DNA of 64,000 nucleotides, taken from assembly GCA_963787125.1 (NCBI GenBank), contig CAWBBV010000001.1, positions 416,001-480,000 of the forward strand. The letters run 5' to 3'. This document shows, piece after piece, positions 1-60,778 of this stretch. Under the pieces are notes generated by a model. That model had not been told where the DNA came from, searched no databases, and saw only the letters and a list, made by a program, of their open reading frames with translations. This DNA comes from an uncultured delta proteobacterium (lineage in GTDB: Bacteria; Desulfobacterota; Desulfuromonadia; Geobacterales; DSM-12255). Each line of letters starts with the position of its first letter. Within the stretch, counting starts at the first letter, position 1. Made by a program: the position numbers and the translations under genes.

Positions 1-832
1 AACACACAGCGTTGTCTGGATCATCGGAGTTGGCGGCATCGTCACCGGCCGGCGCAGACTGCTGAGCTATTTCAGTGAGCGAAACAGGGCTGAAAAAGAG
101 AAGCTGGCGCTGGAGTTGCGTCTACAGCAGGGGCAGAAACTGGAAAGCCTGGGTGTATTGGCCGGCGGGATCGCCCATGATTTTAACAACATCCTGGCAA
201 CGATCATCGGCCACTGCGGTATTTTGCAGCTCAGGCCGGAAAAGGTTGCGAAATGTGTCCCGGAGATCGAGAGCGCTGCCGAGCGTGCCGCGGCACTCTG
301 CCGTCAGATGCTGGCCTATGCCGGCAAGAGCCAAACTGTTATGTCCCGGTTCGATATGACAATTCTGGTGGCTGAGATGGTTGCAATGCTGAAAGCGACC
401 ACCCCGCAGAATGTGGTCATTAACACAAATCTTGCGACTGATGTTTTGCTGGTTAAAGGCGATAGTGAACAGTTCAGGCAGATTATCATCAATCTGCTCA
501 CGAATGCTGCCGAGGCGATCGGTGCAGCAGAGGGAGAGATACGGGTATCACTGACAAAAACAGAAATAATGGCAGGAGATTTGGTTAAGGATCATCTTGG
601 CAGGATCATTCCGGCGGGTAGCTATGCCTGTCTTGAGGTAACTGACACCGGCTGCGGCATGGATGCTGAAACCAGCAGCAGGATTTTCGAACCATTTTAC
701 ACCACCAGGTTTTTTGGCCGCGGCCTGGGGTTGCCCGCGACTCTCGGCATCATTACCGCCCATAAGGGGGCGGTGCAGCTACACAGTCAGCCGGGACAGG
801 GAACGACGGTCAAGGTCTTTCTGCCCGTATAG
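1..832 (+). CDS. Membrane-bound sensor histidine kinase, 5'-truncated by the window edge (HisKA + HATPase)
   Basis: Frame is open from nt 2 (THSVVWIIGVGGI, hydrophobic). H-box AGGIAHDFNNIL, N-box NLLTNA, G-boxes DTGCGM and GRGLGL. Confidence 0.9.
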   Translation, partial: THSVVWIIGVGGIVTGRRRLLSYFSERNRAEKEKLALELRLQQGQKLESLGVLAGGIAHDFNNILATIIGHCGILQLRPEKVAKCVPEIESAAERAAALCRQMLAYAGKSQTVMSRFDMTILVAEMVAMLKATTPQNVVINTNLATDVLLVKGDSEQFRQIIINLLTNAAEAIGAAEGEIRVSLTKTEIMAGDLVKDHLGRIIPAGSYACLEVTDTGCGMDAETSSRIFEPFYTTRFFGRGLGLPATLGIITAHKGAVQLHSQPGQGTTVKVFLPV

Positions 833-854
833 ACCAGTAAACGCCCGCCGTGAT

Positions 855-2438
855 TCAGCCTGCCAATACCGCTCTGATTTTTATCGCCAGATCGCTGATG
901 GAGCACGGTTTCTGGATAAATTGCACCCCTTCTTCCAGCACCCCATGATGGGCGATGACGTCGGCTGTATAGCCTGAGGTGAAAAGGCACTTCATCGCCG
1001 CTCTGGTTGGTCTCAGCTTCTCAGCCAGCGTTCTGCCGTTCATCCCCGGCATCACCACATCAGTTATCAGCAGGTGTATCTCGCCGGGGTGCTCAGCGCA
1101 AAGGTGGATCGCTTTGTCCGGGGAGTCGGCTGCCAGCACCTGATACTCGAGCATTTCCAGAATCTCACAGGTCATCTGTAACAGCGACGGTTCGTCCTCC
1201 ACCAGTAGAACTGTCTCACCACAGCTTTTTGGGACCGCTCTTGAAGCTGTTTCCTCTGCGGCGGGAACCTGCCCCGGATGCCGCGGCAGGTAAATTCTGA
1301 AGGTTGTCCCCTGTCCCGGCTCGCTGTAGACATTGATGAAGCCGTTGTTCTGCTTGACGATGCCGTACACCGTGGCAAGTCCGAGGCCAGTACCTTGTCC
1401 AACCTCTTTAGTGGTAAAGAACGGTTCAAAAATCTTTTCCTGTGTCTCCTTGTCCATGCCACAGCCGGAATCGCTTATGGCAAGCATTACATACTCTCCC
1501 GGAACAAGTTCAGCATGCTTTGCGCAGTCAGCCTCGTTAAAAACAGTATTACCTGTCTCGATAATGAGTTTGCCGACATCAGGAATGGCATCGCGGGCGT
1601 TGACACAGAGATTGGCAAGGATCTGATCTTCCTGGGAAGGATCCAGCTTGACCGGCCAGAGGCCCGCTCCGGGCAGCCAGGTGAGCTCGATGTTTTCACC
1701 GATCAGACGCCGGAGGATTTTCAGCATCGCTTCCACGGTCTCGTTCAGATCAAGTACCTTGGGGACAACTGTCTGTTTTCTGGCAAAAGCCAGCAACTGT
1801 CTGGTGATGCCGGCTGCCCGTTCGGCAGCGTTACTTATGCCGCGCAGCTCTTTTTGCAGCGGGTGATCCGGCGCAATTTTCCGCGTGGCCAGATCGACAT
1901 TCCCCAGAATCACTCCAAGCATATTATTGAAGTCGTGGGCCACACCACCGGCAAGCCGGCCGATTGATTCCATCTTTTGCGCCTGAATAAGCTTGGCTTC
2001 GAGCAAGGCCTTCTCTTCCTCTGCCAACCGGTGTGCAGTCCGCTCCTTGACTTCACTGAGCGCCCGCTCAATCACCATCGAAAGCTTGTCGAGCCGCTCC
2101 TTGGGGAGGTAGTCAGTCGCCCCCTCTTTCAGGAGCTGCACCGCTTTTTCTTCACCAATAGCGCCGGAAACACAGATGAACGGTACTCCGGGGCAGAGCG
2201 ACTTCGTCAGCCGCAGCGCCTCCGTACCCTCGATACCGGGAAGGTGGAAGTCGGCAAGAACCAGGTCGTAGCCGCCGCTATGCAAAAATGCGGTAAACTG
2301 CTGCTCGTTGGCAGCCCAGTCAAGCTGGCAAGAAAAGCCGGCGTCGGTCAGCCGCTCCCTGATAATTTCCGCGTCAAGCGGTGAATCTTCAAGATGCAGA
2401 ATCTTCAGCGAGTTGAGGGCGTCAGTTTCAGCGATCAT
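855..2438 (-). CDS. Hybrid response regulator/histidine kinase (REC-HisKA-HATPase-REC)
   Basis: N-terminal REC (LHLEDSPLD...LADF), [15 protein letters not shown]-terminal REC (LLVEDE...ITDVVMP). ATG at 2438 overlaps the upstream stop. Confidence 0.93.
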
Positions 2439-2886
2439 GCGTTGAACCCCCTTGTGGCGGCAGTTCATTCAGCACGGCCCAGAAAACGCCGACATGCCTC
2501 ACCGCCTCGACAAATTCCGAGAATTTGACCGGTTTGACCACATAGGCATTGACCCCCAGATCGTAACTGCGGATCAGATCATGCTCTTCCCGTGAAGAAG
2601 TCAGCATCACCACCGGGATCATTTTCAGCGTTTCATCAGTACGAATTGCCCGCAGAACATCGATGCCGTCCATGCGCGGCATTTTGATGTCCAGAATCAC
2701 CACTGCCGGGTTGCCGGGCTTGCGTCCGCTGTATTTCCCTTCGCAGCGCAGATACTCCATCGCCTCCACGCCGTCCTTGACGTGGGTGACCAGATTGGCC
2801 AGGTTGTTATCGGCCAGGGCCTCCAGAGTCAGTTCGACATCACTGGGGTTGTCTTCTGCAAACAGAATCGGTTTCAGTTCAGTCAT
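2428..2886 (-). CDS. Single-domain response regulator (Rcp1-like)
   Basis: [31 protein letters not shown] motif. Confidence 0.93.
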
Positions 2887-5800
2887 GGTTTTCTCCTTGT
2901 ATTTTAGGCAATGTGAAGTAAAAACTGGCCCCGCGGTTCAGTTCGGCCTCAGCCCAGATCCGGCCACCATGACGGGCAACGATCCGCTGGACGGTGGCCA
3001 GACCGATACCGGTCCCCTCAAATTCTTCCAGTGTGTGCAGCCGCTGAAAGACGCCAAAGAGTTTGTCGACGTACTTCATATCAAAGCCGACGCCGTTATC
3101 GGCAACGGTGAAGACAATTTCACCGTTCTCCTCGCGGGCGCTGACCTCAATGCGGGCAGACTCTTTTGTCCGGGTATATTTAACCGCATTATCCAGAAGG
3201 TTGACCCAGACCTGGCGAAGCAGGGCGTAATCGCCCCGGACAGACGGCAACTCCCCGATGACCCATTCGATGGCGCGATCTGAATGACTCGCTTTTAGCG
3301 GCGTCAGCACTTCCTGCAGTGACTGGTTCATGTCCAGAGCTTGCCGCCGCATTTCCGCCCGTCCGGTGCGGGAAAACTGCAGCAGGTCGTCAATCAGCAC
3401 CCCCATCTGGCGAGCGGCAGAAGCAATGGTGTCCAGATAGTGCAGCCCTTTATCGCTGAGACCGGCGCGGCAGCGGGAAATCAGCAGCTCCACATAACCG
3501 TCAATATGCCGCAAGGGGGCGCGCAGATCGTGGGAGACGGAGTAGCAAAACGCTTCCAGCTCCTTGTTGGCAGTTTCCAGCTGACCTGTTCGCTCGATAA
3601 CCCGTTTTTCCAGTTCGGCGTTCAAACGGTGGATTTCTGTCTCGGCTTTTTTCCGTTCGCTAATTTCTGCCTTGAGTGATTCGTTGGCAACTTCCAGCTC
3701 TTCCGTTCGCTCTTTTACCCGATGCTCCACCTCGTCATAGGCTTTTTGCAATTCTCCCTGGGTGCGCTCCAGCTTCTCCTTCTCCCGTTGCAGTTCAGTG
3801 TTGACCAGTTGCAGCTGCTGAGGACTGGGGATAGAGAGGAGCCTGGGGAGTACGGGCCAGACAACGATTGCTGTTGCCAGTGAAACCAGGGCAGTGAGAG
3901 TGTCTACGGCTGCCTGCCACCAGTCAACCGGCCACCAGAGACCGACCACATGGACAAGATGGGTCGTACCGCAGGCAAGAATGAAAAGTCCGAAGAGGAC
4001 AATAATCCAGGAAAACGGCAGGTCTTTCCGTTTTCTGACAAACACCACCAGGAAAAAGGGGATGGTCGCGTAGGAGACGGCGATCAAAGCATTGGCAATG
4101 GCCATGGTCATCATCAGAAGCGGGGGCATGGTACCGGCCTTTGCTCCCTGGATTTCCATGGTGCCCGGCATGAAGACCATCGGCGCTATAATGAGAATAG
4201 CCAGAGCGGCTGCCGGGGCGATGACTCTCGGCACAAGTTCCAGCGTTTGCCTTAAAAGAGATTTGGGCGGGGCAAAGGTCTGCACTTTGTAAGCCCGTAA
4301 GCGGAGGCTGTTGGTCACCACGAAAATCGAGCTGAACGCCATGGCTCCGGCAGCGAACATCGGGATGAGCAGGCCATAGGCAGCAACCGGGATGAGGGCA
4401 ATGTTGTAGAACAGGGCCCAGATCAGATTCTGGACAATGGTCTGGGATGTTGCCCGGGAGAGTGAAATAGCCCGGCCGACGCCGGCGAGATCACCGCTGA
4501 TAAGGGTGATGCCGGCAGCGGCCATGGCTATGTCGGTACCGGTGCCGATGGCAATGCCGACATCAGCCTGAGCCAGTGCCGGAGCATCATTGATGCCGTC
4601 ACCGACCATCGCCACGGTAGGCCGGGCAAAATTGCCAAGGCTGCTCACAGCCTGTAACTGTTTTATCGCTTCGGCTTTTTCGCCGGGCAATACTTCGGCC
4701 ACGACCCGGGTTATCCCGACCTGAGCGGCGATCGCGTCAGCAGTGCTCTGGTTGTCACCGGTCAGCATGACAATGTCGAGACCAAGTTGGCGTAGATCGG
4801 CAATTGCTTCCCTGGCGCCCGGTTTCACCGTGTCTGCAACTGCGATCAACCCTATCGGCCTGGCAGGTTCATTGCCCTCCACCCGGCTGACGGCGACGAT
4901 CATGGCGGTCTTGCCTTCGGCTTGCAGTCTCATGATGTCAGTCTGCAGCTTATCTACAGCGATCCCTTCATTTTGCATCATCCGCGGATTGCCGATGATC
5001 ACGGCTGTATCCGCCACTATCGCCCTGATGCCAAAACCGCCGAAAGCACGGAACTGTTCCGGAGAGCCAAGCGCCAAACCCTTATCCTGTCCGGCCTTGA
5101 CGATGCAGCGCCCTAATGGATGTTCCGAGCCAAGTTCAGCGCTGGCCGCCAGGCGGAGAACTTCGTCGGCAGGCAGATCATGGGTAGGGATAATATCGGT
5201 AAGAGCCGGTTCTCCCCGGGTGATGGTGCCGGTTTTATCAAATACAACGATATTGACGCGGCCGGCCCGTTCGAGGATTTCGCTGCTTTTGAAGAGAATC
5301 CCGCTTTGAGCCCCTCTGGAGGTGCCGACCATGATGGCAGTCGGTGTTGCCAGGCCGATGGCGCAGGGGCAGGCGATAACGAGAACCGCAATGGCATTTA
5401 TCATCGCACCGGTCCAGGGGATATGGACGACATAAAGCCAGCCGAAGAAGGTAGCCAGGGCAATAGCGATGATGATCGGCACGAAATATTTGCCGATTTC
5501 GTCGGTCAGCTTCTGGATAGGTGCTTTGCTCCCCTGGGCTTCCTGCACCAGTTTTGCTATCTGTGCCAGGGTACTGTTCTTGCCGACCTTGGTGGCTTCG
5601 AATCTGATCAAGCCTTCGCGGTTGATCGTAGCGCCGATGACTTCATCGCCGGGACCTTTGCTGACAGGCATCGACTCACCGGTGATCATTGCTTCATCAA
5701 AGGCCGAGCGGCCTTCACTGATGATGCCGTCAACAGGGACTTTTTCGCCGGGGCGGACGACCACGCTATCGCCGACCAGAACCTGTTCAACGCTGATCAC

Positions 5801-6715
5801 AGTTTCAACGCCGTTCCGCACTACGCAGGCTGTCTTGGCGCGCAGTCCCATCAACGCCTTCAAGGCCGCCGATGTTTTACCTTTAGCGCGGGTTTCCAGG
5901 TATTTGCCGAGCTTGATGAGAGTGATGATGGCCGCGCCGGTTTCGTAATAAACATTGGGACTGCTGATGATGCCGATGGTAACGAGCAGGCTGGAAAAAT
6001 AGGCGGCCGAAGAGCCCATGGCGATGAGCACATCCATGTTGGCACTACCGAAACGGAGGCTCTTCCAGGCGCCGACGTAAAATTGCCAGCCGACGATAAA
6101 TTGGACGACAGTCGCCGCCAGGAGCATGATAACTTGATCGTATTTAAAAGCGACGCTGATAAAGTCCCGCGCCATGCTGAAGATGATGAGCGGTATCGTA
6201 AAAATGAGCCCGATTATCAGTAAACGCCCCTGTTTTTCCAGTTCGGCGGCGCGCAGTTGAGCTTCTACGTCTTCTACCTCTTCGGATTCACCCGCCTGGA
6301 CAAGATCAAAGCCGGCGCTGCGGATGATTGCGGCCAGTTCGGCAACCGAGGTCACGCCGGGGATATACTCAAGCGCTGCCCGCTCGACACCGTAGCTGAC
6401 AGTGGCGACAAGGACTCCGTTTTGCTTGGCCAGGAGTTTTTCCAGCGTCAAGGCATCGGTATGATCCTGTAACCCGGTAATCGGCAGAGTTATCTTGCCG
6501 GTGGCAACGGCATAGCCGATCTTTTTGACATGGGCAATGATATCGGTTTCGCTCAGCTGGAGCGGGTCAAAACTGATATTCAGTTTTTCACTGGCAAAAT
6601 CGACACTCGCGTCGCTAATACCCGGCAATTTACGCAGATTAGACTCGATTCTCAGGGCGCAGTTGGCACAGGTCATGCCGGTAACAGGCATGGTGGTGCT
6701 CTCGGAAGGGGTCAT
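2879..6715 (-). CDS. Fusion: Cu(I)-translocating P1B-type ATPase + ethylene-receptor (ETR1-type) membrane sensor domain + histidine kinase
   Basis: ATPase: GMTCANC, TGES, CPC(449-451), DKTGT(D493), SEHP, GDGIND, YN, MAFSS. Sensor: [12 protein letters not shown]...FILACGTTH...TALVSLATA. Kinase: [11 protein letters not shown](H1062), NLLDNA, DNGVGF, GTGIGL. One uninterrupted ORF with RBS GAGG. Confidence 0.92.
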
Positions 6716-6752
6716 TCTTACCTCTTGAAATTTCTATGGTGCAGCAAATTAT

Positions 6753-8864
6753 TTAAGCCGTCAGGTGAACTGCGTCACTCCCCAGCAACTCATGCACCTT
6801 GGTCGCCAGAGCCTGTAACGTGTAAGGTTTCTGAATGAAATGCACCCCTGTATCCAGCACGCCATTGTGGGCGATTATGTCGGCCGTATATCCCGACATG
6901 AACAGACATTTCATTTCAGGCCTGAGCGGGCGGATTTTTTCGGCCAGATCCCGACCGTTCATGCCCGGCATCACCACGTCGGTCATCAGCAGGTGAATCA
7001 CCCCCGGATGTTCTGTTGCAATCCGGAGTGCCTCGAACGGGCTGTTTGCGGGTAGTACTACATAGTTATTAAATTCCAGAATCTCCCTGGTCATTTCCAG
7101 GAGTGTCGGCTCATCCTCAACTAAAAGCACAATCTCGCCGTGTCCCATGGCGGCTTCTGCTGCAGCCGGTTCCAAGAGCGTTGCGCCATGGACAGTATGC
7201 CTGGGCAGATAGATGTTGAACGTCGTTCCCTGTCCCGGCTCGCTATAGACATTTATAAAGCCTTTGTTCTGCTTGACGGCGCCATAAACCGTGGCGAGTC
7301 CCAGGCCGGTTCCCTTGCCGGTCTCCTTGGTAGTAAAAAATGGTTCGAAGATATGGGCCAGTGTTTCCCTGTCCATACCGTAGCCGTTGTCGCCGACAGT
7401 CAGCCGCACATACTCTCCGGGGACAAAGTCCGGGTCCTGGGGGGTGTAAAACTGGTCGAAGCTGCTGTTGCCGGTTTCAATGATAATCTTGCCGACGCCG
7501 GAGATCGCATCCCTGGCATTAACACAGAGATTGGCAAGGATCTGATCGATCTGGGACGGATCTGCCATCACCGGCCAGAGCTTTGCGGCCGGCTGCCAAC
7601 TGAGTTGAATGTCTTCGCCGATAAGTCGCTGCAGCATTTTGAGTGTGCTTGCTACCGCGTCATTCAGATCGAGATTTTTCGGGACAATGGTTTGTTTGCG
7701 GGCAAAGGCCAGCAGTTGCCGGGTGAGGTCGGCGGAGTGTCTGGCGGCGGTGCGGATTTCTTCCAGGTCAGCACGCAGAGGCTGGGACGGCTCCAGCTTC
7801 ATTAGCGCCAGATCAGCACGGCCTATAATGACAGTCAGCATGTTGTTGAAGTCATGGGCAACTCCGCCTGCCAATCGACCCACTGATTCCATTTTCTGCG
7901 CCTGCAGCAGCTGGGATTCGAGTTTAGTCCTCTCCTCCTCGGCACGTTTGCGTGCGGTGATATCCTGGATGAAAGCCACTATCTGTCCGTTTTCATCTGA
8001 GCGGTACTGGGCGCTGACTTCGACGTCAAAAACGGTGCCATCCTTGCGGCGCTGCCGCGATTCAAAGCGATCCGCTCCCCGTTCCCTGACTAAGCGGATG
8101 TGAGCAGCTGTTCCTTCGGGCGACTCTTCAATTTCGATATCACTGATACTCATGGACAACAGCTCTGCCATGCTGTAGCCGCTCATCCGGCAATAGGTCA
8201 TATTGACCTCGATAAAGTGCCCCTGGGTGTCTACCAGCCAGATTCCATCCATGGCTGTCTGCAGGATAGTCCGGTGGTGTTCTTCGCTCTTGCGAAGTTC
8301 AGCGGTACGCTCCTCCACCCGCTGCTCCAGTTTCTGCGACTGTTGCTCAATCTGCCGAAAGGCGAGCGAGTTTTTGAGCGCCAGGGTGATCGGCGGGGCA
8401 AGCAGAGTGATGATCCGGTCTGTTTCGCCAATCCGCTCCAATTCCGGCAGATCGAAGAGTAGCAGCATGCCGACCAGTTCACCACCCACCCGCAACGGAT
8501 AGCGTGCCATTGACTTGATGCCGGCCCGCAACAGCTGGCTACGCAAAGGATGATTCAGAGTCAGCTCTTCCGGATAAAACGGTAGCGCTTCGGGACTTGT
8601 TTCAGGACAAAACGTATTCAGTTCAAGTGGGGAAAAGAGCGTGGCTCGCCTTGCCGGGCTGACATTCAACAGTTCGTCTGTTTCAGTTTCTGCGTGGTGG
8701 GCAATAACCATAACTGTTCTGGCTCCGGTCAGTTCGCGCAGATGTTCTGTCAACGCCACGCCCAGTTCATACGGTGAGGTGGAAACCAGCAGTTGCGAGA
8801 TCACCTCGATGGCCATCAACTGGGCAGCAGGTGAGAACTTCTGTTCGTTTTCAAATGCTTTCAT
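6753..8864 (-). CDS. Hybrid sensor histidine kinase (GAF-like, PAS, HisKA, HATPase, REC)
   Basis: N-terminal GAF-like fold ([15 protein letters not shown]), PAS ([10 protein letters not shown]...RRKDGT), AHDFNNML, C-terminal REC. ATG at 8864 forms an ATGA overlap with the DUF1638 stop. Confidence 0.9.
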
Positions 8865-9469
8865 GGCGTCTCCCCGGCAACCCTGCAAAATTTTGCCTCG
8901 GCTCGGGCTGCCAGCAGTGCTGTCAGCATACTGTCCAGTGTTACCGTTTCAACCCGCCAGGGGAGCCCGCTGTAGGTCGAAAATTCTGTCAGCTGCAGTT
9001 CAGGAACCGGCAGCAGGCCGGTATCAAGATATACCAGCACCCTCCGGTTTTCTCCCATGAGCCCCTGCGCAACCTCTTTGTTCAGCCCCAGTTCGCTCTT
9101 CATGATATATTCCCAGCGCCGGGCCCATTCCGGCAGAACCAGAAAGGCCTCTTCACGCATCAGTTGGCGATAGCGATCCCGTCCCAGCAGCAGCTGCGCA
9201 CAGTTGATAACATTGACCCGACCCACCTGAAAACGGCGCACCAGGTCGAGCATCCGGGCGGTGCAATCGCCATAGACGAGCACCAGGCAGCCGGTCTCGT
9301 CAGTTCTCTCAGTAAGCGCTGTGTGCAGCTTCGCTTCGAGTTTCGGGGGGTCCATATGCAGCATAGAGTCGAGAAAAAGCAGTTTGCCGCCGATAAGCCG
9401 GCGGCGGTGCAGCTCCTCCATCTCTGCCCGTACTACGCCGCAACTGAGCCAGACAGTACGCTCCGTCAC
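8861..9469 (-). CDS. DUF1638-family protein
   Basis: SCGVVRAE, LDSMLHMDPPKL, VYGDC, NCAQLLLG pattern. GTG at 9469 forms a GTGA overlap with the upstream stop. Confidence 0.75.
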   Translation of the reverse strand: MTERTVWLSCGVVRAEMEELHRRRLIGGKLLFLDSMLHMDPPKLEAKLHTALTERTDETGCLVLVYGDCTARMLDLVRRFQVGRVNVINCAQLLLGRDRYRQLMREEAFLVLPEWARRWEYIMKSELGLNKEVAQGLMGENRRVLVYLDTGLLPVPELQLTEFSTYSGLPWRVETVTLDSMLTALLAARAEAKFCRVAGETP

Positions 9470-10500
9470 TTCCCGCACCCCATCTCCCCGGAATAGTCGG
9501 CAGCGGCAGCCTGCATGGCGCGCAGATTTCCGGGTGGCGTTGCCTGTGGCATATCGGCGCCTGCATTGGCCAGAATGTAGTGCCCGGAAGGCGCAGCCGT
9601 CCGCAGGCATGCCATGCTCAGCGCATACACCTGTTCGGGAGTGGCCGTCGGCATGGTCAGATTGTCCAGGTTGCCGATAATGGTCAGGTCAGGCCCAAGT
9701 AACTGTCTGGCTTCGGCCAGATCATCCTTTGAACCGGCAATAATCCCGACCAGGCCGTCTGTTCCGGGGAGCAGGTCAAGGACGTGATTCATGCGGCCGC
9801 CGGTGCTGCTGATGACTTTGGGGCCATTTATCCGGGTAAAAACAGCCTGGAGGTGCGGCAGGAACTGATCGACAAAGATGCTGCGCGGGGCTACTGCCGA
9901 CGTTGCCATCCCTTCGGTAATGACCAGGCAGTCGGCGCCCGCGTCAAGCAGGGCATTAGCCCAGGCGATTAAAAATGGCGACGTATACTCCAGCAGGCTC
10001 TGAGCCAGCTCTTTATCAAAGAGGACCGCTTCCATCCACTGTTCAATGCCGACAAGCAGAGACGGGAGAATGCCGGGTCCGGGAAGAACGCTGATGATCG
10101 GCGCTTGCCCCTTGTACAGCTCCGCCAGCTGCCGGTTTGTCTCAAGTATCATGGGCAGACGACCGGTGCATAGGATATCCGGAAGCGGTAATGAAAGGGC
10201 GTCAACAGCCTTTCTCGCTGCCGGTCGTTTCATGTTGGGAACCTGATCAGCAGACCAGGCCACCTCGCCCCCAAACGCTTCCGCAATGGCGCTGTAGTCA
10301 AAAGCAGTCATCACCAGATCAAAGCCGAACTCCTTTTGGAGCGCTTTTTGACCGGCCACGTAGGCGGTTGCATCGCTGTACAGAGTCCGCAAATCGGTGT
10401 TTGTCAGCTTGCCACCGTAAGCGCCGAGAACGGCAAAGACCGGCAACCTGTCAACCGGTTGCCCGGAAAGAGTATTCATGACCCGTTGATATGAATTCAT
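9466..10500 (-). CDS. UroD/MtaA-CmuA family methyltransferase-fold protein
   Basis: PVDRLPV start, AEAFGGEV, IIGNLD, TPPGNLRAM end. Adjacent to a corrinoid protein; no HemE RQAGR motif. Confidence 0.85.
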   Translation of the reverse strand: MNSYQRVMNTLSGQPVDRLPVFAVLGAYGGKLTNTDLRTLYSDATAYVAGQKALQKEFGFDLVMTAFDYSAIAEAFGGEVAWSADQVPNMKRPAARKAVDALSLPLPDILCTGRLPMILETNRQLAELYKGQAPIISVLPGPGILPSLLVGIEQWMEAVLFDKELAQSLLEYTSPFLIAWANALLDAGADCLVITEGMATSAVAPRSIFVDQFLPHLQAVFTRINGPKVISSTGGRMNHVLDLLPGTDGLVGIIAGSKDDLAEARQLLGPDLTIIGNLDNLTMPTATPEQVYALSMACLRTAAPSGHYILANAGADMPQATPPGNLRAMQAAAADYSGEMGCGK

Positions 10501-11165
10501 GATAGCACCTCTTGCCGGGCTTCACGCTGTAGCCGCATGAAAAGTTCATCGGCGGCAACGGCATTATGGGCGCTGCCATCACCACCTACTTCCGCCACCA
10601 GCTCCGGACGCCAGTTGAAGACTGCACCGCCGACCGCCAATTTAATCCGGCCACTTAATCCTCTGGCGTTGATCAGTTCACGCAGTTTGCAGATGTTCAG
10701 GGCAGTGGTCTGCATCATGGCAGAAGCGCCGATCACACAGGCATTGACCTCAAGCGCCTTTTCCAGAAACTGCTCGGCCGGCACGTCATTGCCCAGGTCG
10801 TAAACATCCCAGCCTGCTGCAGCCAGAAAGAGACCCACGGTTTTGCGGCCAAGACTGTGAAAATCATCCTCGATGTTGCCGATCACAACTGCGCCTTTGC
10901 TGTGACGGTCAGAACTATTATCCGGGACACAGCGAAGCAGAGTGTCTTCCGCAATTTTTGAGGCAACAAAGTTCTGCGCTAACGACATGGTCTCTTCTTC
11001 CCACATCTTGCCGAGTTCGATGATAGCCGGGTCGAGGATACTTTCAATGACCTGCACGGAATCAAGCCCTGTGGCAAGCGCGTTTTCAATAATCCCTTTA
11101 GCACCGGCGCGATCAGCATTTATCATGGCGGTAAGCAACTGTTCACTGAAATCGGCAGGCTTCAT
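10497..11165 (-). CDS. Cobalamin (corrinoid)-binding protein (cap domain + B12-binding Rossmann domain)
   Basis: DFHSLG (DxHxxG), DLGNDVP, GASAMM, AVGGA. RBS AGGAG. Confidence 0.92.
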   Translation of the reverse strand: MKPADFSEQLLTAMINADRAGAKGIIENALATGLDSVQVIESILDPAIIELGKMWEEETMSLAQNFVASKIAEDTLLRCVPDNSSDRHSKGAVVIGNIEDDFHSLGRKTVGLFLAAAGWDVYDLGNDVPAEQFLEKALEVNACVIGASAMMQTTALNICKLRELINARGLSGRIKLAVGGAVFNWRPELVAEVGGDGSAHNAVAADELFMRLQREARQEVLS

Positions 11166-11356
11166 ACGGCAGACTCCTTAATCTAAGGGAAGAAATAATG
11201 GTTAATCTTGTTCGTCTTTAATCTTAGCAATTTTTTTTTAAAATGTAAGAAGTATTGCTTAACTTTACCCGCTAGATCCATTTTAGTCATTACAATGCCT
11301 GAGGCGAACGGCAAGCAGGCATACTGTTTTATTTACTCCGCATTTCATGCTATTGT

Positions 11357-12544
11357 TTGCGATATTTCTTACAGGAGACCATTGTGCGCACATTATTCTG
11401 CTGTCTGTTTGCCTGGCTGTTTTTTACAGTTTTGCATGTATCTGCTGAAGAGGCGGTGCCGCTTGCTGAAAAAGAGGGCAAATGGTCTTTTTCCATGAGT
11501 GACGATAGTAAAGTCCTGAGCAAGGAGCGCTTTAAAAAGCAGCAGAACTCGCTGCGGGATATCTCCGCCATTATCACTGCATCAGCGGCGATGAATCCTC
11601 CCAAAGGGTTCGAAGCCAGATTCTGGGGGTCAGTCACCGCCAAAGACAGATATGATGCGTGCAGCGGGAAAAAATGTCCGCCGTCACGGCCGACTGCCAC
11701 TCTGGCAATGATGCTGGGCCGCTATGAAGAGAACAACGGCAAGGTCAAAGCGGCCTTTAACACACCAGCAACAATGGATATTTCCATCAACAACCTGGGG
11801 CACCTCTTTGCCAACCTTCCCGTCCTTTTCAAAGATGCGGAAGGGTATCTGCTGCCGGAACCAAAGCCGGACGGTGAGCGTGCCGGGATGCGTACCTACG
11901 CGAACAATGGCCATGCCGTTGCTGTCATGACCAGCAATGACAAACCTCTGTGGCAACCTGTCAGCCGGGAAAGATACCTGAAAGCCGCCATTGCAGCTGC
12001 AGCTAAAAGTGCGGGGATGCCGCCGAAGCCGGTTAAAAAGGGTAAAAAGCAGAAGGCTGTCGAGATCAGCGGCAATCCGGTGATGATAGAAGAGAGCAGG
12101 AGCTGGATCGATCCGGCCGAGGAGAAGCGGTGGGTAGAAAGCAGCCGCTCACTTGCCTTTGAGATGAAGGAGTCGGTTGAGGTGCTGCAAGCCAGGTTGC
12201 AAAAGCTTCAGGCTGAGCTCGAGGCAATGCCGGCGGAACAAAGGAAAATGCCGGCAAGAGTGGAGTTCATCACCGCTGCCGATGGGGAAAGCGCGTCACT
12301 CCTGGCTGCTGACAGCAGCGCAGGGGTTGCTGTTGTAACCCCTGATTTCAGATACTTCAACCAGAAGCTGCCATTTGAGGTAATTCAACTTCTGGTTGTC
12401 CAATGGAAATTTGAGGGTAATCAGCTTTATGACCCTGACAAGCCAGGCATTACCGAAACCCTTAACAATAAAAAACTCCTGGAAACCTACAAGAGTATGG
12501 ATTGGCAGAAACTGCGCAGCAAGGTCACTCGAACTGGGCCTTGA
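11357..12544 (+). CDS. Hypothetical exported protein
   Basis: 395-aa ORF with an N-terminal hydrophobic signal-like segment; no recognised motif. Confidence 0.7.
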   Translation: MRYFLQETIVRTLFCCLFAWLFFTVLHVSAEEAVPLAEKEGKWSFSMSDDSKVLSKERFKKQQNSLRDISAIITASAAMNPPKGFEARFWGSVTAKDRYDACSGKKCPPSRPTATLAMMLGRYEENNGKVKAAFNTPATMDISINNLGHLFANLPVLFKDAEGYLLPEPKPDGERAGMRTYANNGHAVAVMTSNDKPLWQPVSRERYLKAAIAAAAKSAGMPPKPVKKGKKQKAVEISGNPVMIEESRSWIDPAEEKRWVESSRSLAFEMKESVEVLQARLQKLQAELEAMPAEQRKMPARVEFITAADGESASLLAADSSAGVAVVTPDFRYFNQKLPFEVIQLLVVQWKFEGNQLYDPDKPGITETLNNKKLLETYKSMDWQKLRSKVTRTGP

Positions 12545-60690: not shown

Positions 60691-60778
60691 GGAGAGGTGT
60701 CCGAGTGGTCGATGGTGCCTGACTCGAAATCAGGTGTACGGCAACGTACCTAGGGTTCGAATCCCTACCTCTCCGCCA
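60691..60778 (+). tRNA. tRNA-Ser (anticodon CGA)
   Basis: GGAGAGG/CCTCTCC acceptor stem, CCTGA-CTCGAAA-TCAGG anticodon arm, long variable arm, GTTCGAATC, encoded CCA. Confidence 0.97.

Follow-up and report, generated by a model that had tools for sequence, protein, structure and literature searches.

Four consecutive genes on the minus strand of an uncultured delta proteobacterium of the Geobacterales (assembly GCA_963787125.1, contig CAWBBV010000001.1) form a fixed cassette. In it a corrinoid protein, a zinc-less MtaA-like protein of the URO-D fold and a DUF1638 protein may well act together as a corrinoid-state sensor, which serves as the input module for a signalling protein, here a hybrid histidine kinase. 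The cassette lies in a stretch of 64,000 nucleotides (positions 416,001 to 480,000 of the contig, or C1:416001-480000 in our numbering of this 99.96% complete genome), the whole of which we call the window. We put the probability of this reading at roughly 0.6 and favour it because the four genes are kept as a unit and appear to be co-translated, natural fusions occur on both sides of DUF1638, the outputs are interchangeable and no enzyme is conserved downstream. A preliminary description of the same stretch, made from the letters alone, had already reported the four genes and their positions, and both Pfam searches and our reading of the gene junctions agree with it. The cassette is laid out as follows:

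11166..11340, minus strand: non-coding leader and promoter region of the cassette (sequence reading)
10497..11165, minus strand: corrinoid protein, 222 amino acids, with a B12-binding_2 cap and a B12-binding Rossmann domain (Pfam)
9466..10500, minus strand: URO-D-fold, MtaA/CmuA-like methyltransferase homologue, 344 amino acids (PF01208)
8861..9469, minus strand: DUF1638 protein, 202 amino acids (PF07796), its GTG start overlapping the URO-D stop
6753..8864, minus strand: hybrid histidine kinase, 703 amino acids (Pfam and NCBIfam), its ATG overlapping the DUF1638 stop
8355..8864, minus strand: cassette-specific N-terminal GAF domain of the kinase (residues 1-170); a long signalling helix comes after it
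7953..8279, minus strand: PAS domain of the kinase (PF00989, 53.6 bits)
7200..7880, minus strand: HisKA and HATPase_c core of the kinase (Pfam)
6795..7130, minus strand: receiver domain of the kinase (PF00072, 64.1 bits)

In the Pfam scan the kinase and DUF1638 open reading frames (ORFs) were called at 6753-8888 and 8861-9610, respectively. The most likely start of the kinase is, however, the ATG at 8864, within an ATGA (8861-8864) that overlaps the DUF1638 stop, and that of DUF1638 is most likely the GTG at 9469, within a GTGA (9466-9469) that overlaps the URO-D stop. A 4-nucleotide overlap (10497-10500) likewise joins the corrinoid and URO-D genes, and a Shine-Dalgarno sequence, TAAGGAG, lies at 11174-11180, 8 nucleotides 5' of the corrinoid-gene ATG. 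A promoter scan of positions 600-11600 returned 10 promoter-like sites against 5.0 ± 2.4 expected, none of them at the 5' end of the cassette, and a terminator scan of the same interval found terminator-like sites at chance level. In an Rfam scan of the whole window the sole match was a tRNA at 60691-60775, with no riboswitch, cobalamin riboswitches included, above threshold.

The four genes form an autonomous cassette

Orthologues of the URO-D protein (59-69% identity, the next-best match being at 31%) occur in 5 of 60 relatives and in none of seven genomes of the same genus (78-99% complete), and all five loci carry the genes in the order corrinoid protein, URO-D, DUF1638, kinase. With the GAF domain alone as the query, and one genome taken per species, 15 loci were recovered from Geobacter, Geomonas, Geomesophilobacter, Desulfuromonadaceae bins and one Terracidiphilus bin; in every one the corrinoid, URO-D and DUF1638 genes stand immediately upstream, again in that order. 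Three of the 15 were contigs seen before, and 17 distinct orthologous loci were set against the window. Gene order is identical in all 17, and the 4-nucleotide overlap recurs at the three junctions in 16, 16 and 14 of them. The 83 ORFs flanking these cassettes have nothing in common, and no Pterin_bind, MtrH, MTTB or RACo match is found among them. The four genes constitute a fixed, autonomous cassette with flanks that are not conserved. At single loci the flanks hold a stand-alone S-methyl_trans gene adjoining the cassette (L042, 8426-9388, of the ~320-335 amino acid class), or ETR1_N-, PocR- and PAS-kinases upstream with a lone receiver downstream (L037). The Terracidiphilus sp. bin, an acidobacterium by name, carries the full cassette (L048) with its first three proteins 63-73% identical to those of the window, to be explained either by horizontal transfer of all four genes together or by an error in binning.

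The arrangement extends to more distant relatives. Among 401 genomes drawn evenly from the phylum, at least seven have a match to the GAF domain at E<=1e-8, with up to eight candidates scored per genome. After the two weakest, partial matches were left out, five distant loci in four genomes could be compared; all five have URO-D and DUF1638 genes upstream, and the corrinoid gene is present in all three contigs that are long enough to include it. One of these loci (L055) encodes a corrinoid protein, a URO-D protein and then a single protein of the composition DUF1638-GAF-PAS-PAS-HD-GYP. Of 41 DUF1638 matches in 61 Geobacterales genomes, 30 have a URO-D-family gene within 500 nucleotides and 35 have one within 5 kb; 11 of the 41 sit in open frames of 432-1198 amino acids. 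At 24 loci of more distant URO-D paralogues the triad is complete within 1.5 kb in 18, and all four such loci that were enlarged show corrinoid protein, URO-D, DUF1638 and kinase. Directly upstream of the corrinoid gene, one of these paralogous cassettes (L065) has a full RACo gene (958-2556; Fer2, Raco_middle and RACo_C_ter) and another (L063) a gene for a MEDS-PAS protein (1728-3026); behind both cassettes come genes for a lone receiver and a REC-kinase, a pairing that the window also has.

Natural fusions join the same partners. A search for longer proteins containing DUF1638 returned six, comprising four URO-D-DUF1638 fusions (534-544 amino acids) and two DUF1638-GAF-kinase fusions, and in the latter the part after DUF1638 is recognisable as the GAF domain of the cassette. 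The order of domains in the fusions is the order of genes in the cassette. A profile of the GAF domain, searched against 1.84 billion representative sequences, found 1967 matches at E<=0.001, of which 243 reached E<=1e-10 and 71 reached E<=1e-30. Nearly all listed matches of the strongest group begin within the first 20 residues of the protein, the exceptions including fragments and one protein (P0184) in which the GAF match begins at residue 212, behind a DUF1638 domain. When 69 of these 71 best representatives were scanned (a size limit applied), 57 proved to be histidine kinases, two HD-GYP proteins and one a GGDEF and EAL protein; four showed PAS domains only and five, mostly fragments, showed no match.

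Chance adjacency of four unrelated genes deserves mention given that the genome has many histidine kinases, three more of them encoded within 6 kb of the cassette. The same order is nevertheless found at 17 orthologous, five distant and four paralogous loci, with recurring 4-nucleotide overlaps and with fusions, and this conserved synteny refutes the idea, to which we assign a negligible probability. No account of the four-gene cassette was found in the literature searched, a search that left most subscription journals outside its reach.

A corrinoid protein paired with a zinc-less MtaA homologue

The corrinoid protein matches B12-binding_2 (43.3 bits) and B12-binding (72.8 bits) in Pfam, and its DxHxxG motif, D101-F-H103-S-L-G106, is invariant in 18 of 18 orthologues and kept in three distant loci. 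Against TIGR02370, which describes the MtaC/MtbC/MtgC type, it scores 111.1 bits, under the cut-off of 215.3, and all other named NCBIfam equivalogs are likewise below their cut-offs. Nor does it classify as a CarH-type regulator, the score against NF052513 being 36.3 bits for a cut-off of 400 and the Pfam scan showing no helix-turn-helix domain.

The genome encodes a second lone B12-binding protein (C1:120996-121661, L052:7997-8662) of 221 amino acids, 27% identical to that of the cassette and with ExHxxG in place of DxHxxG. Its gene comes after genes for an SBP-kinase, a MASE1-PAS-kinase, a lone receiver and a REC-kinase-REC protein, the last of which is 36% identical to the product of window positions 855-2468. 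Neither a methyltransferase nor a DUF1638 gene adjoins it.

The second cassette protein matches PF01208 over residues 5-335 with 162.6 bits (cut-off 23.9). As with the corrinoid protein, its scores against more specific models fall short: 123.3 for TIGR01463 (cut-off 235.4), 147.6 for PRK06252 (244) and 116 for MtaA_Meth (400). Among solved structures it comes closest to MtaA (4AY7), with E 4.7e-18, or 1.8e-24 when a profile is used. In the alignment with 4AY7 the H-I-C of MtaA corresponds to S-S-T and the G-C-G to A-G-A. We take these MtaA residues to be the His-x-Cys...Cys zinc ligands that activate the thiol acceptor. No cysteine occupies either position in any of the 18 orthologues or the five distant members, 23 cassette methyltransferases in all. 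The first motif reads LHHTGG in 11 of the orthologues and ISSTGG in five (IISSTGG in one), with LHQTGG, FHHTGG and MHSTGG found once each. Judged from these alignments, the cassette protein has lost the thiol-activating zinc site of MtaA. It is otherwise strongly conserved, with 80 invariant columns over 18 sequences. Transfer of a methyl group to or from the cognate corrinoid protein is a putative activity, supported by the adjoining, translationally coupled corrinoid gene.

DUF1638 and the GAF domain as possible links between the corrinoid pair and the kinase

The DUF1638 protein (PF07796, 82.3 bits, cut-off 27) is the sole copy in the genome. Four residues, C10, H38, C69 and C90, are invariant in an alignment of 52 sequences reaching down to 39% identity. 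The AlphaFold2 (AF2) model of the protein (mean predicted local distance difference test, pLDDT, 93.4) has an alpha/beta fold in which each of the four comes after one of strands 1-4. From this placement we infer a Cys3-His metal or iron-sulfur site. A sequence search of the PDB gave no match to DUF1638, and Foldseek returned one match at E<=0.001 with a TM score of 0.29, which gives no specific solved relative. The wide VIA search peaked at Z 8.3 for receiver- and flavodoxin-like folds over ~100 of 202 residues, a value within the common range, and a search of the ESM Atlas found DUF1638 clusters only.

In Phaeobacter inhibens a DUF1638 protein (PGA1_c13340) and a RamA-like protein are required for methionine synthesis by a split MetH, according to the portion of the source available (PMC5764234), in which the authors offer no specific suggestion as to the role of DUF1638. 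A homologue in Ruegeria was later called a predicted helper of reductive recharging in the accessible part of a second article (PMC12478193).

The preliminary description had called the N-terminal domain of the kinase unusual and GAF-like, and modelling supports the GAF assignment. The Pfam match is borderline (22.7 bits against a cut-off of 22.4), but the AF2 model (pLDDT 92.7) matches GAF domains with a Foldseek probability of 1.00 and TM scores of 0.5-0.65, and with VIA Z scores of 13.7-15.2 over 143-191 aligned residues, so that the domain is, on the strength of its predicted structure, a genuine GAF fold. Across five orthologues kinase residues 1 to ~190 are 61-73% identical; beyond ~190 both sequence and domain content diverge. 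The predicted phospho-acceptor of the kinase is His337 (7854-7856) in AHDFNN, and that of its receiver Asp629 (6978-6980) in MTDVVMPG.

The best Foldseek E-values for the GAF model are to bilin-binding GAF domains, such as 6OAP, and to phytochromes. By VIA, however, cNMP-binding, PtsP-type and bilin-binding GAF domains are tied within the above range of Z, and the fold therefore points to no ligand class. Of 79 relatives, 48 have Cys86, which lies in the GAF insert, and 61 have His56; given the incomplete conservation of Cys86, a haem or bilin held covalently on this cysteine was rejected as a general feature.

These observations bear on a second explanation, in which the corrinoid protein is itself the sensor proper, responding to B12 supply, to light through photolysis of an alkyl-cobalamin or to oxygen and redox state, with the URO-D protein acting as a non-catalytic scaffold or a re-setting enzyme; in a variant, the triad makes a tetrapyrrole-type ligand or loads it into the GAF domain. 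The loss of the URO-D zinc site would suit such a scheme, as would the weak match to the CarH model, the bilin-binding GAF domains at the head of the Foldseek list and the second lone B12-binding protein, which comes after a kinase cluster with no methyltransferase. Against this, the CarH score of 36.3 bits is far under the 400-bit cut-off, the GAF classes tie structurally and give no lead on a ligand class, the GAF-insert cysteine is kept in only some of the relatives, and the presence of a strongly conserved URO-D protein in every cassette, together with the RACo gene at L065, points to working Co(I) methyl chemistry. We regard this second explanation as rather improbable.

A model for corrinoid-state sensing

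These data allow us to propose how the corrinoid pair and DUF1638 could serve as a sensor input. The MtaA-like TIM barrel would dock the corrinoid protein and set its cobalt state by reversible methyl transfer from a small methyl donor, while a RamA-type activator encoded elsewhere would keep the cobalt reducible. DUF1638, with its probable Cys3-His metal site, would sit between the methyltransferase and the GAF domain of the kinase and relay whether the cobalt is methyl-Co(III) or Co(I)/Co(II). The GAF domain would then switch the kinase through the signalling helix, and phosphate would pass to the kinase's own receiver and probably also to the lone receiver and the REC-kinase encoded downstream. 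A methyl donor is favoured over a pure redox signal because the methyltransferase is always kept and strongly conserved and because the paralogous cassette at L065 carries RACo. That the four proteins form a physical complex, which cobalt state is read and what the signal is are matters we only infer. A complex prediction for the corrinoid, URO-D and DUF1638 proteins with the GAF domain (residues 1-170) as partner, run without controls, gave a score of 0.00 (mark 0.32) and counts neither way.

A bolder form of this model, which we advance only tentatively, is that the triad represents a new kind of chemoreceptor in which a corrinoid protein serves as signalling intermediate and not as catalytic methyl carrier. 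Here the ratio of methyl-Co(III) to Co(I) would report how much of some methyl donor the environment offers (a methyl halide, a methylated sulfur compound or a methoxy compound, for example), and DUF1638 would be an adaptor or an Ada-like methyl acceptor. The dedicated GAF domain would drive kinase, HD-GYP and GGDEF-EAL outputs in many anaerobes and, in this genome and one other, the receptor would share a phosphorelay with a kinase bearing an ethylene-binding domain.

To our knowledge, no role outside metabolism is known for corrinoid methyltransferase systems, and B12-based sensing is known only from riboswitches and from CarH/AerR-type proteins. If the sensor reading is correct, the cassette would provide a third way for cells to sense with B12 chemistry, DUF1638 would gain a testable role, and metal reducers of the Geobacter type would feed a previously unrecognised environmental cue into a multi-kinase relay. 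The outputs observed are histidine kinases and, in relatives, HD-GYP proteins, with one GGDEF-EAL protein bearing the same GAF domain. The natural fusions tell which of the proteins should touch, which permits a direct test with four soluble proteins.

Methyl-transfer partners and the case for an ordinary pathway

From the absence of partner enzymes, the preliminary description had suggested a possible sensory module, and not a catabolic pathway, in which the kinase would read the Co(I)/Co(II)/methyl-Co(III) state. Its statement that the window holds no methyl-tetrahydrofolate methyltransferase and no corrinoid activator is correct, all Pterin_bind and RACo_C_ter matches of the genome being on C7. 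Across the genome the partners are missing in part: profile searches find no MtrH, MTTB (MttB) or MtaB, but a RamA-like activator and two stand-alone S-methyl_trans genes are present. The absence of an activator likewise holds for the window and loses force at L065, where the paralogous cassette has its full RACo gene upstream. The sensory interpretation thus draws its support from the fixed cassette, variable flanks, fusions and HD-GYP output, and its argument from missing partners is weaker than originally put.

The two Pterin_bind matches are at C7:111215, in MetH, and at C7:313934, in a frame of 285 amino acids taken as FolP. MetH (C7:110237-112654, L054) has 805 amino acids and lacks a reactivation domain. 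The sole RACo_C_ter match (C7:239934) is in the RamA-like gene (C7:239403-240683, L053), whose product of 426 amino acids has no ferredoxin domain and which lies between purM-like and purH-like genes. Price et al., in the available text of PMC5764234, tie this arrangement to MetH reactivation in Desulfovibrio. There are two URO-D genes, that of the cassette and one frame of 340 amino acids (463.9 bits) taken as hemE, and four S-methyl_trans matches, namely MetH, a protein of 630 amino acids and the two stand-alone genes. The latter (L060:4125-5087 and L061:4185-5192, both on C14; ~320-335 amino acids) are surrounded by toxin-antitoxin and transposase genes, with no B12 gene anywhere near. As regards a complete catabolic system, no second methyltransferase was found in the cassette or in the flanks of the 17 loci, apart from the S-methyl_trans gene at L042, and no activator is encoded with the cassette of the window or at those loci, the L065 paralogue having one.

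The main alternative is that the cassette is half of an ordinary methyl-transfer pathway. The URO-D protein would then be the first methyltransferase (MT1) and the acceptor would be encoded elsewhere, for example by a stand-alone homocysteine-S-methyltransferase-family gene, as in split methionine synthases, while the GAF kinase would sense the substrate and induce the operon, as proposed for MecA. Several points weigh against a sensor, and most of them fit this alternative. The URO-D protein is conserved like a working enzyme, and the genome has both the RamA-like activator and the two stand-alone S-methyl_trans genes, so that a metabolic route for the methyl group is conceivable. Single MtaA-family enzymes such as MtsA can run both half-reactions, and the lack of a recognisable acceptor gene is therefore no proof that an acceptor is absent. 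An S-methyl_trans gene adjoins the cassette at one of 17 orthologous loci (L042). The GAF domain could itself bind a small ligand, and neither a DNA-binding response regulator nor any other final output of the cassette was identified. As far as the sources at hand describe them, DUF1638 has a metabolic phenotype together with a RamA-like protein, in the methionine synthesis of P. inhibens (PMC5764234); zinc-free MT1 enzymes of the URO-D fold can be fully active, as is CdmB (PMC13222342); and in the catabolic mec cassette, too, a PocR kinase and a response regulator occur with a corrinoid protein, an MtaA/CmuA-family enzyme, the putative DUF1638 protein MecG and RACo (PMC9768040).

Other evidence argues against half of a pathway. 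The 17 loci have no conserved neighbour that is an acceptor methyltransferase, an activator or a DNA-binding regulator, and the two S-methyl_trans genes of this genome have the surroundings described above. DUF1638 is fused to the signalling protein itself, which is an unexpected place for a helper in cofactor repair. Moreover, the outputs include HD-GYP and GGDEF-EAL proteins besides kinases, and Geobacterales genomes hold several paralogous cassettes, each with a signalling protein of its own. On balance we consider the half-pathway unlikely and retain the sensor input module as the preferred reading.

Neighbouring genes and origin of the locus

Downstream of the cassette the window carries three further signalling genes:

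2879..6715, minus strand: fusion of a CopA-type P1B ATPase, the ethylene-binding domain ETR1_N and a histidine kinase, 1278 amino acids (Pfam)
2428..2886, minus strand: stand-alone receiver, 152 amino acids, candidate phosphorelay partner (Pfam)
855..2468, minus strand: REC-HisKA-HATPase_c-REC hybrid kinase, 537 amino acids, candidate phosphorelay partner (Pfam)

The CopA-ETR1_N-kinase gene begins 37 nucleotides past the stop of the cassette kinase and is, by its position, probably co-transcribed with the cassette. It belongs to an older local operon and not to the cassette itself, being present without the cassette in a genome of the same genus, G006. This genome is collinear with the window on both sides (L066, G006:C123) but lacks 6729-11340, and its CopA-ETR1_N-kinase gene abuts the divergent gene that lies at 11357-12544 in the window. 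Relative to G006 the cassette is thus a discrete 4.6-kb insertion or deletion. Its guanine-plus-cytosine content is 0.561, with 0.557 and 0.565 in the surroundings, and no flanking repeats were seen in the alignment of the junction. At the protein level the core of the 855-2468 kinase shares 59-66% identity with those of orthologous cassette kinases, and the DNA of the cassette kinase core (7200..7880) is ~69% identical to the G006 orthologue of the 855-2468 kinase. The divergent gene (11357-12544, plus strand) is an ORF of 395 amino acids with no Pfam or NCBIfam match and ~70% DNA identity in G006.

The product of 2879-6715 joins an ATPase part (HMA, E1-E2_ATPase and Hydrolase domains) to an additional predicted membrane helix, to ETR1_N, which scores 108.9 bits and has CGTTH in its second helix, and to HisKA/HATPase_c. 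In plants, the copper pump RAN1 and the ethylene receptor ETR1 form a pair, of which this protein is a single-chain bacterial counterpart. Such fusions are common: nearly all of the 120 matches listed for the CopA/ETR1_N junction (69-89% identical) have both ATPase and ETR1_N, and they come from Bacteroidetes and Deltaproteobacteria bins. No description of a bacterial CopA-ethylene-domain fusion was found in the literature searched. ETR1_N occurs in 6 of 61 Geobacterales genomes, and in two of the six genomes with the orthologous cassette, namely the present one and G023. In both, the ETR1_N kinase gene is within ~4 kb of the cassette; it is downstream and CopA-fused here, and upstream and stand-alone in the other (L037, 2186-3301). 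This hints that the ETR1_N and corrinoid inputs feed one relay.

Comparison with known systems

The split methionine synthase of P. inhibens resembles the cassette in that a DUF1638 gene lies beside a stand-alone B12-binding protein, and the available part of its description also notes that the presence of DUF1638 across alpha-proteobacteria tracks a RamA-like activator (PMC5764234). The genome studied here likewise possesses a RamA-like gene, and its MetH lacks a reactivation domain. In P. inhibens, as far as that text goes, the enzyme assisted by DUF1638 is metabolic and consists of pterin-binding, homocysteine-binding and B12 parts, whereas in the window DUF1638 is partnered with an MtaA-like protein and a kinase, and MetH is on another contig.

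The mec cassette of anaerobic dichloromethane degraders comprises the PocR kinase MecA, the corrinoid protein MecB, the regulator MecD, the MtaA/CmuA-family protein MecE, the MtrH-type methyl-folate enzyme MecF, MecG, the RACo protein MecH, further methyltransferases and a transporter, and its products rank among the most abundant proteins when cells grow on the substrate, as stated in the accessible portions of two reports (10.1101/2021.08.30.458270, PMC9768040). Its description as a protein with a domain of unknown function, with a citation of Price 2018, leads us to take MecG as a probable DUF1638 protein. Both systems unite a sensor kinase, a corrinoid protein and an MtaA/CmuA-family enzyme in one cluster, and MecG would correspond to the DUF1638 protein. 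The mec kinase senses through a PocR domain, in contrast to the different GAF domain of the cassette kinase, and none of the mec extras (MecF, MecH, MecD, the transporter and the further methyltransferases) is conserved beside the cassette at the 17 loci.

In the CdmBCA system of Acetobacterium dehalogenans, a catabolic chloromethane dehalogenase, the zinc-free URO-D-fold methyltransferase CdmB efficiently methylates its corrinoid protein, and unlike the cassette this system has a methyl-folate MT2, CdmA (PMC13222342, in the part available). CdmB and the cassette URO-D protein match only marginally in sequence (E 0.05 with a profile).

The MtaA/MtaC, MtbA/MtbC and MtsA/MtsB systems of Methanosarcina likewise place the gene of a URO-D-fold enzyme beside that of a cap-plus-Rossmann corrinoid protein with DxHxxG. 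The cassette differs from them in that its scores are all below the NCBIfam cut-offs and its zinc site is gone, in that its genome is without coenzyme M metabolism or an MT1 partner (MtaB/MttB), and in that its genes come in a fixed set with those for DUF1638 and a signalling protein. With CarH/LitR and AerR/PpaA the cassette shares a B12-binding domain in the role, here proposed, of a sensor, and a weak match to the CarH model. In those regulators the cofactor changes with light or with ligand state and the direct target is DNA or a repressor; none of them is known to involve a methyltransferase, DUF1638 or a two-component kinase. Finally, MsmS and RdmS of Methanosarcina acetivorans are kinases that sense redox through a covalent haem in a GAF domain and control how fused corrinoid/methyltransferase genes are transcribed. 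The cassette resembles them in having a GAF-containing sensor kinase that is genetically tied to corrinoid methyltransferase genes; in contrast to them, it does not conserve the GAF cysteine, which 48 of 79 relatives have, and its kinase is co-translated with the module.

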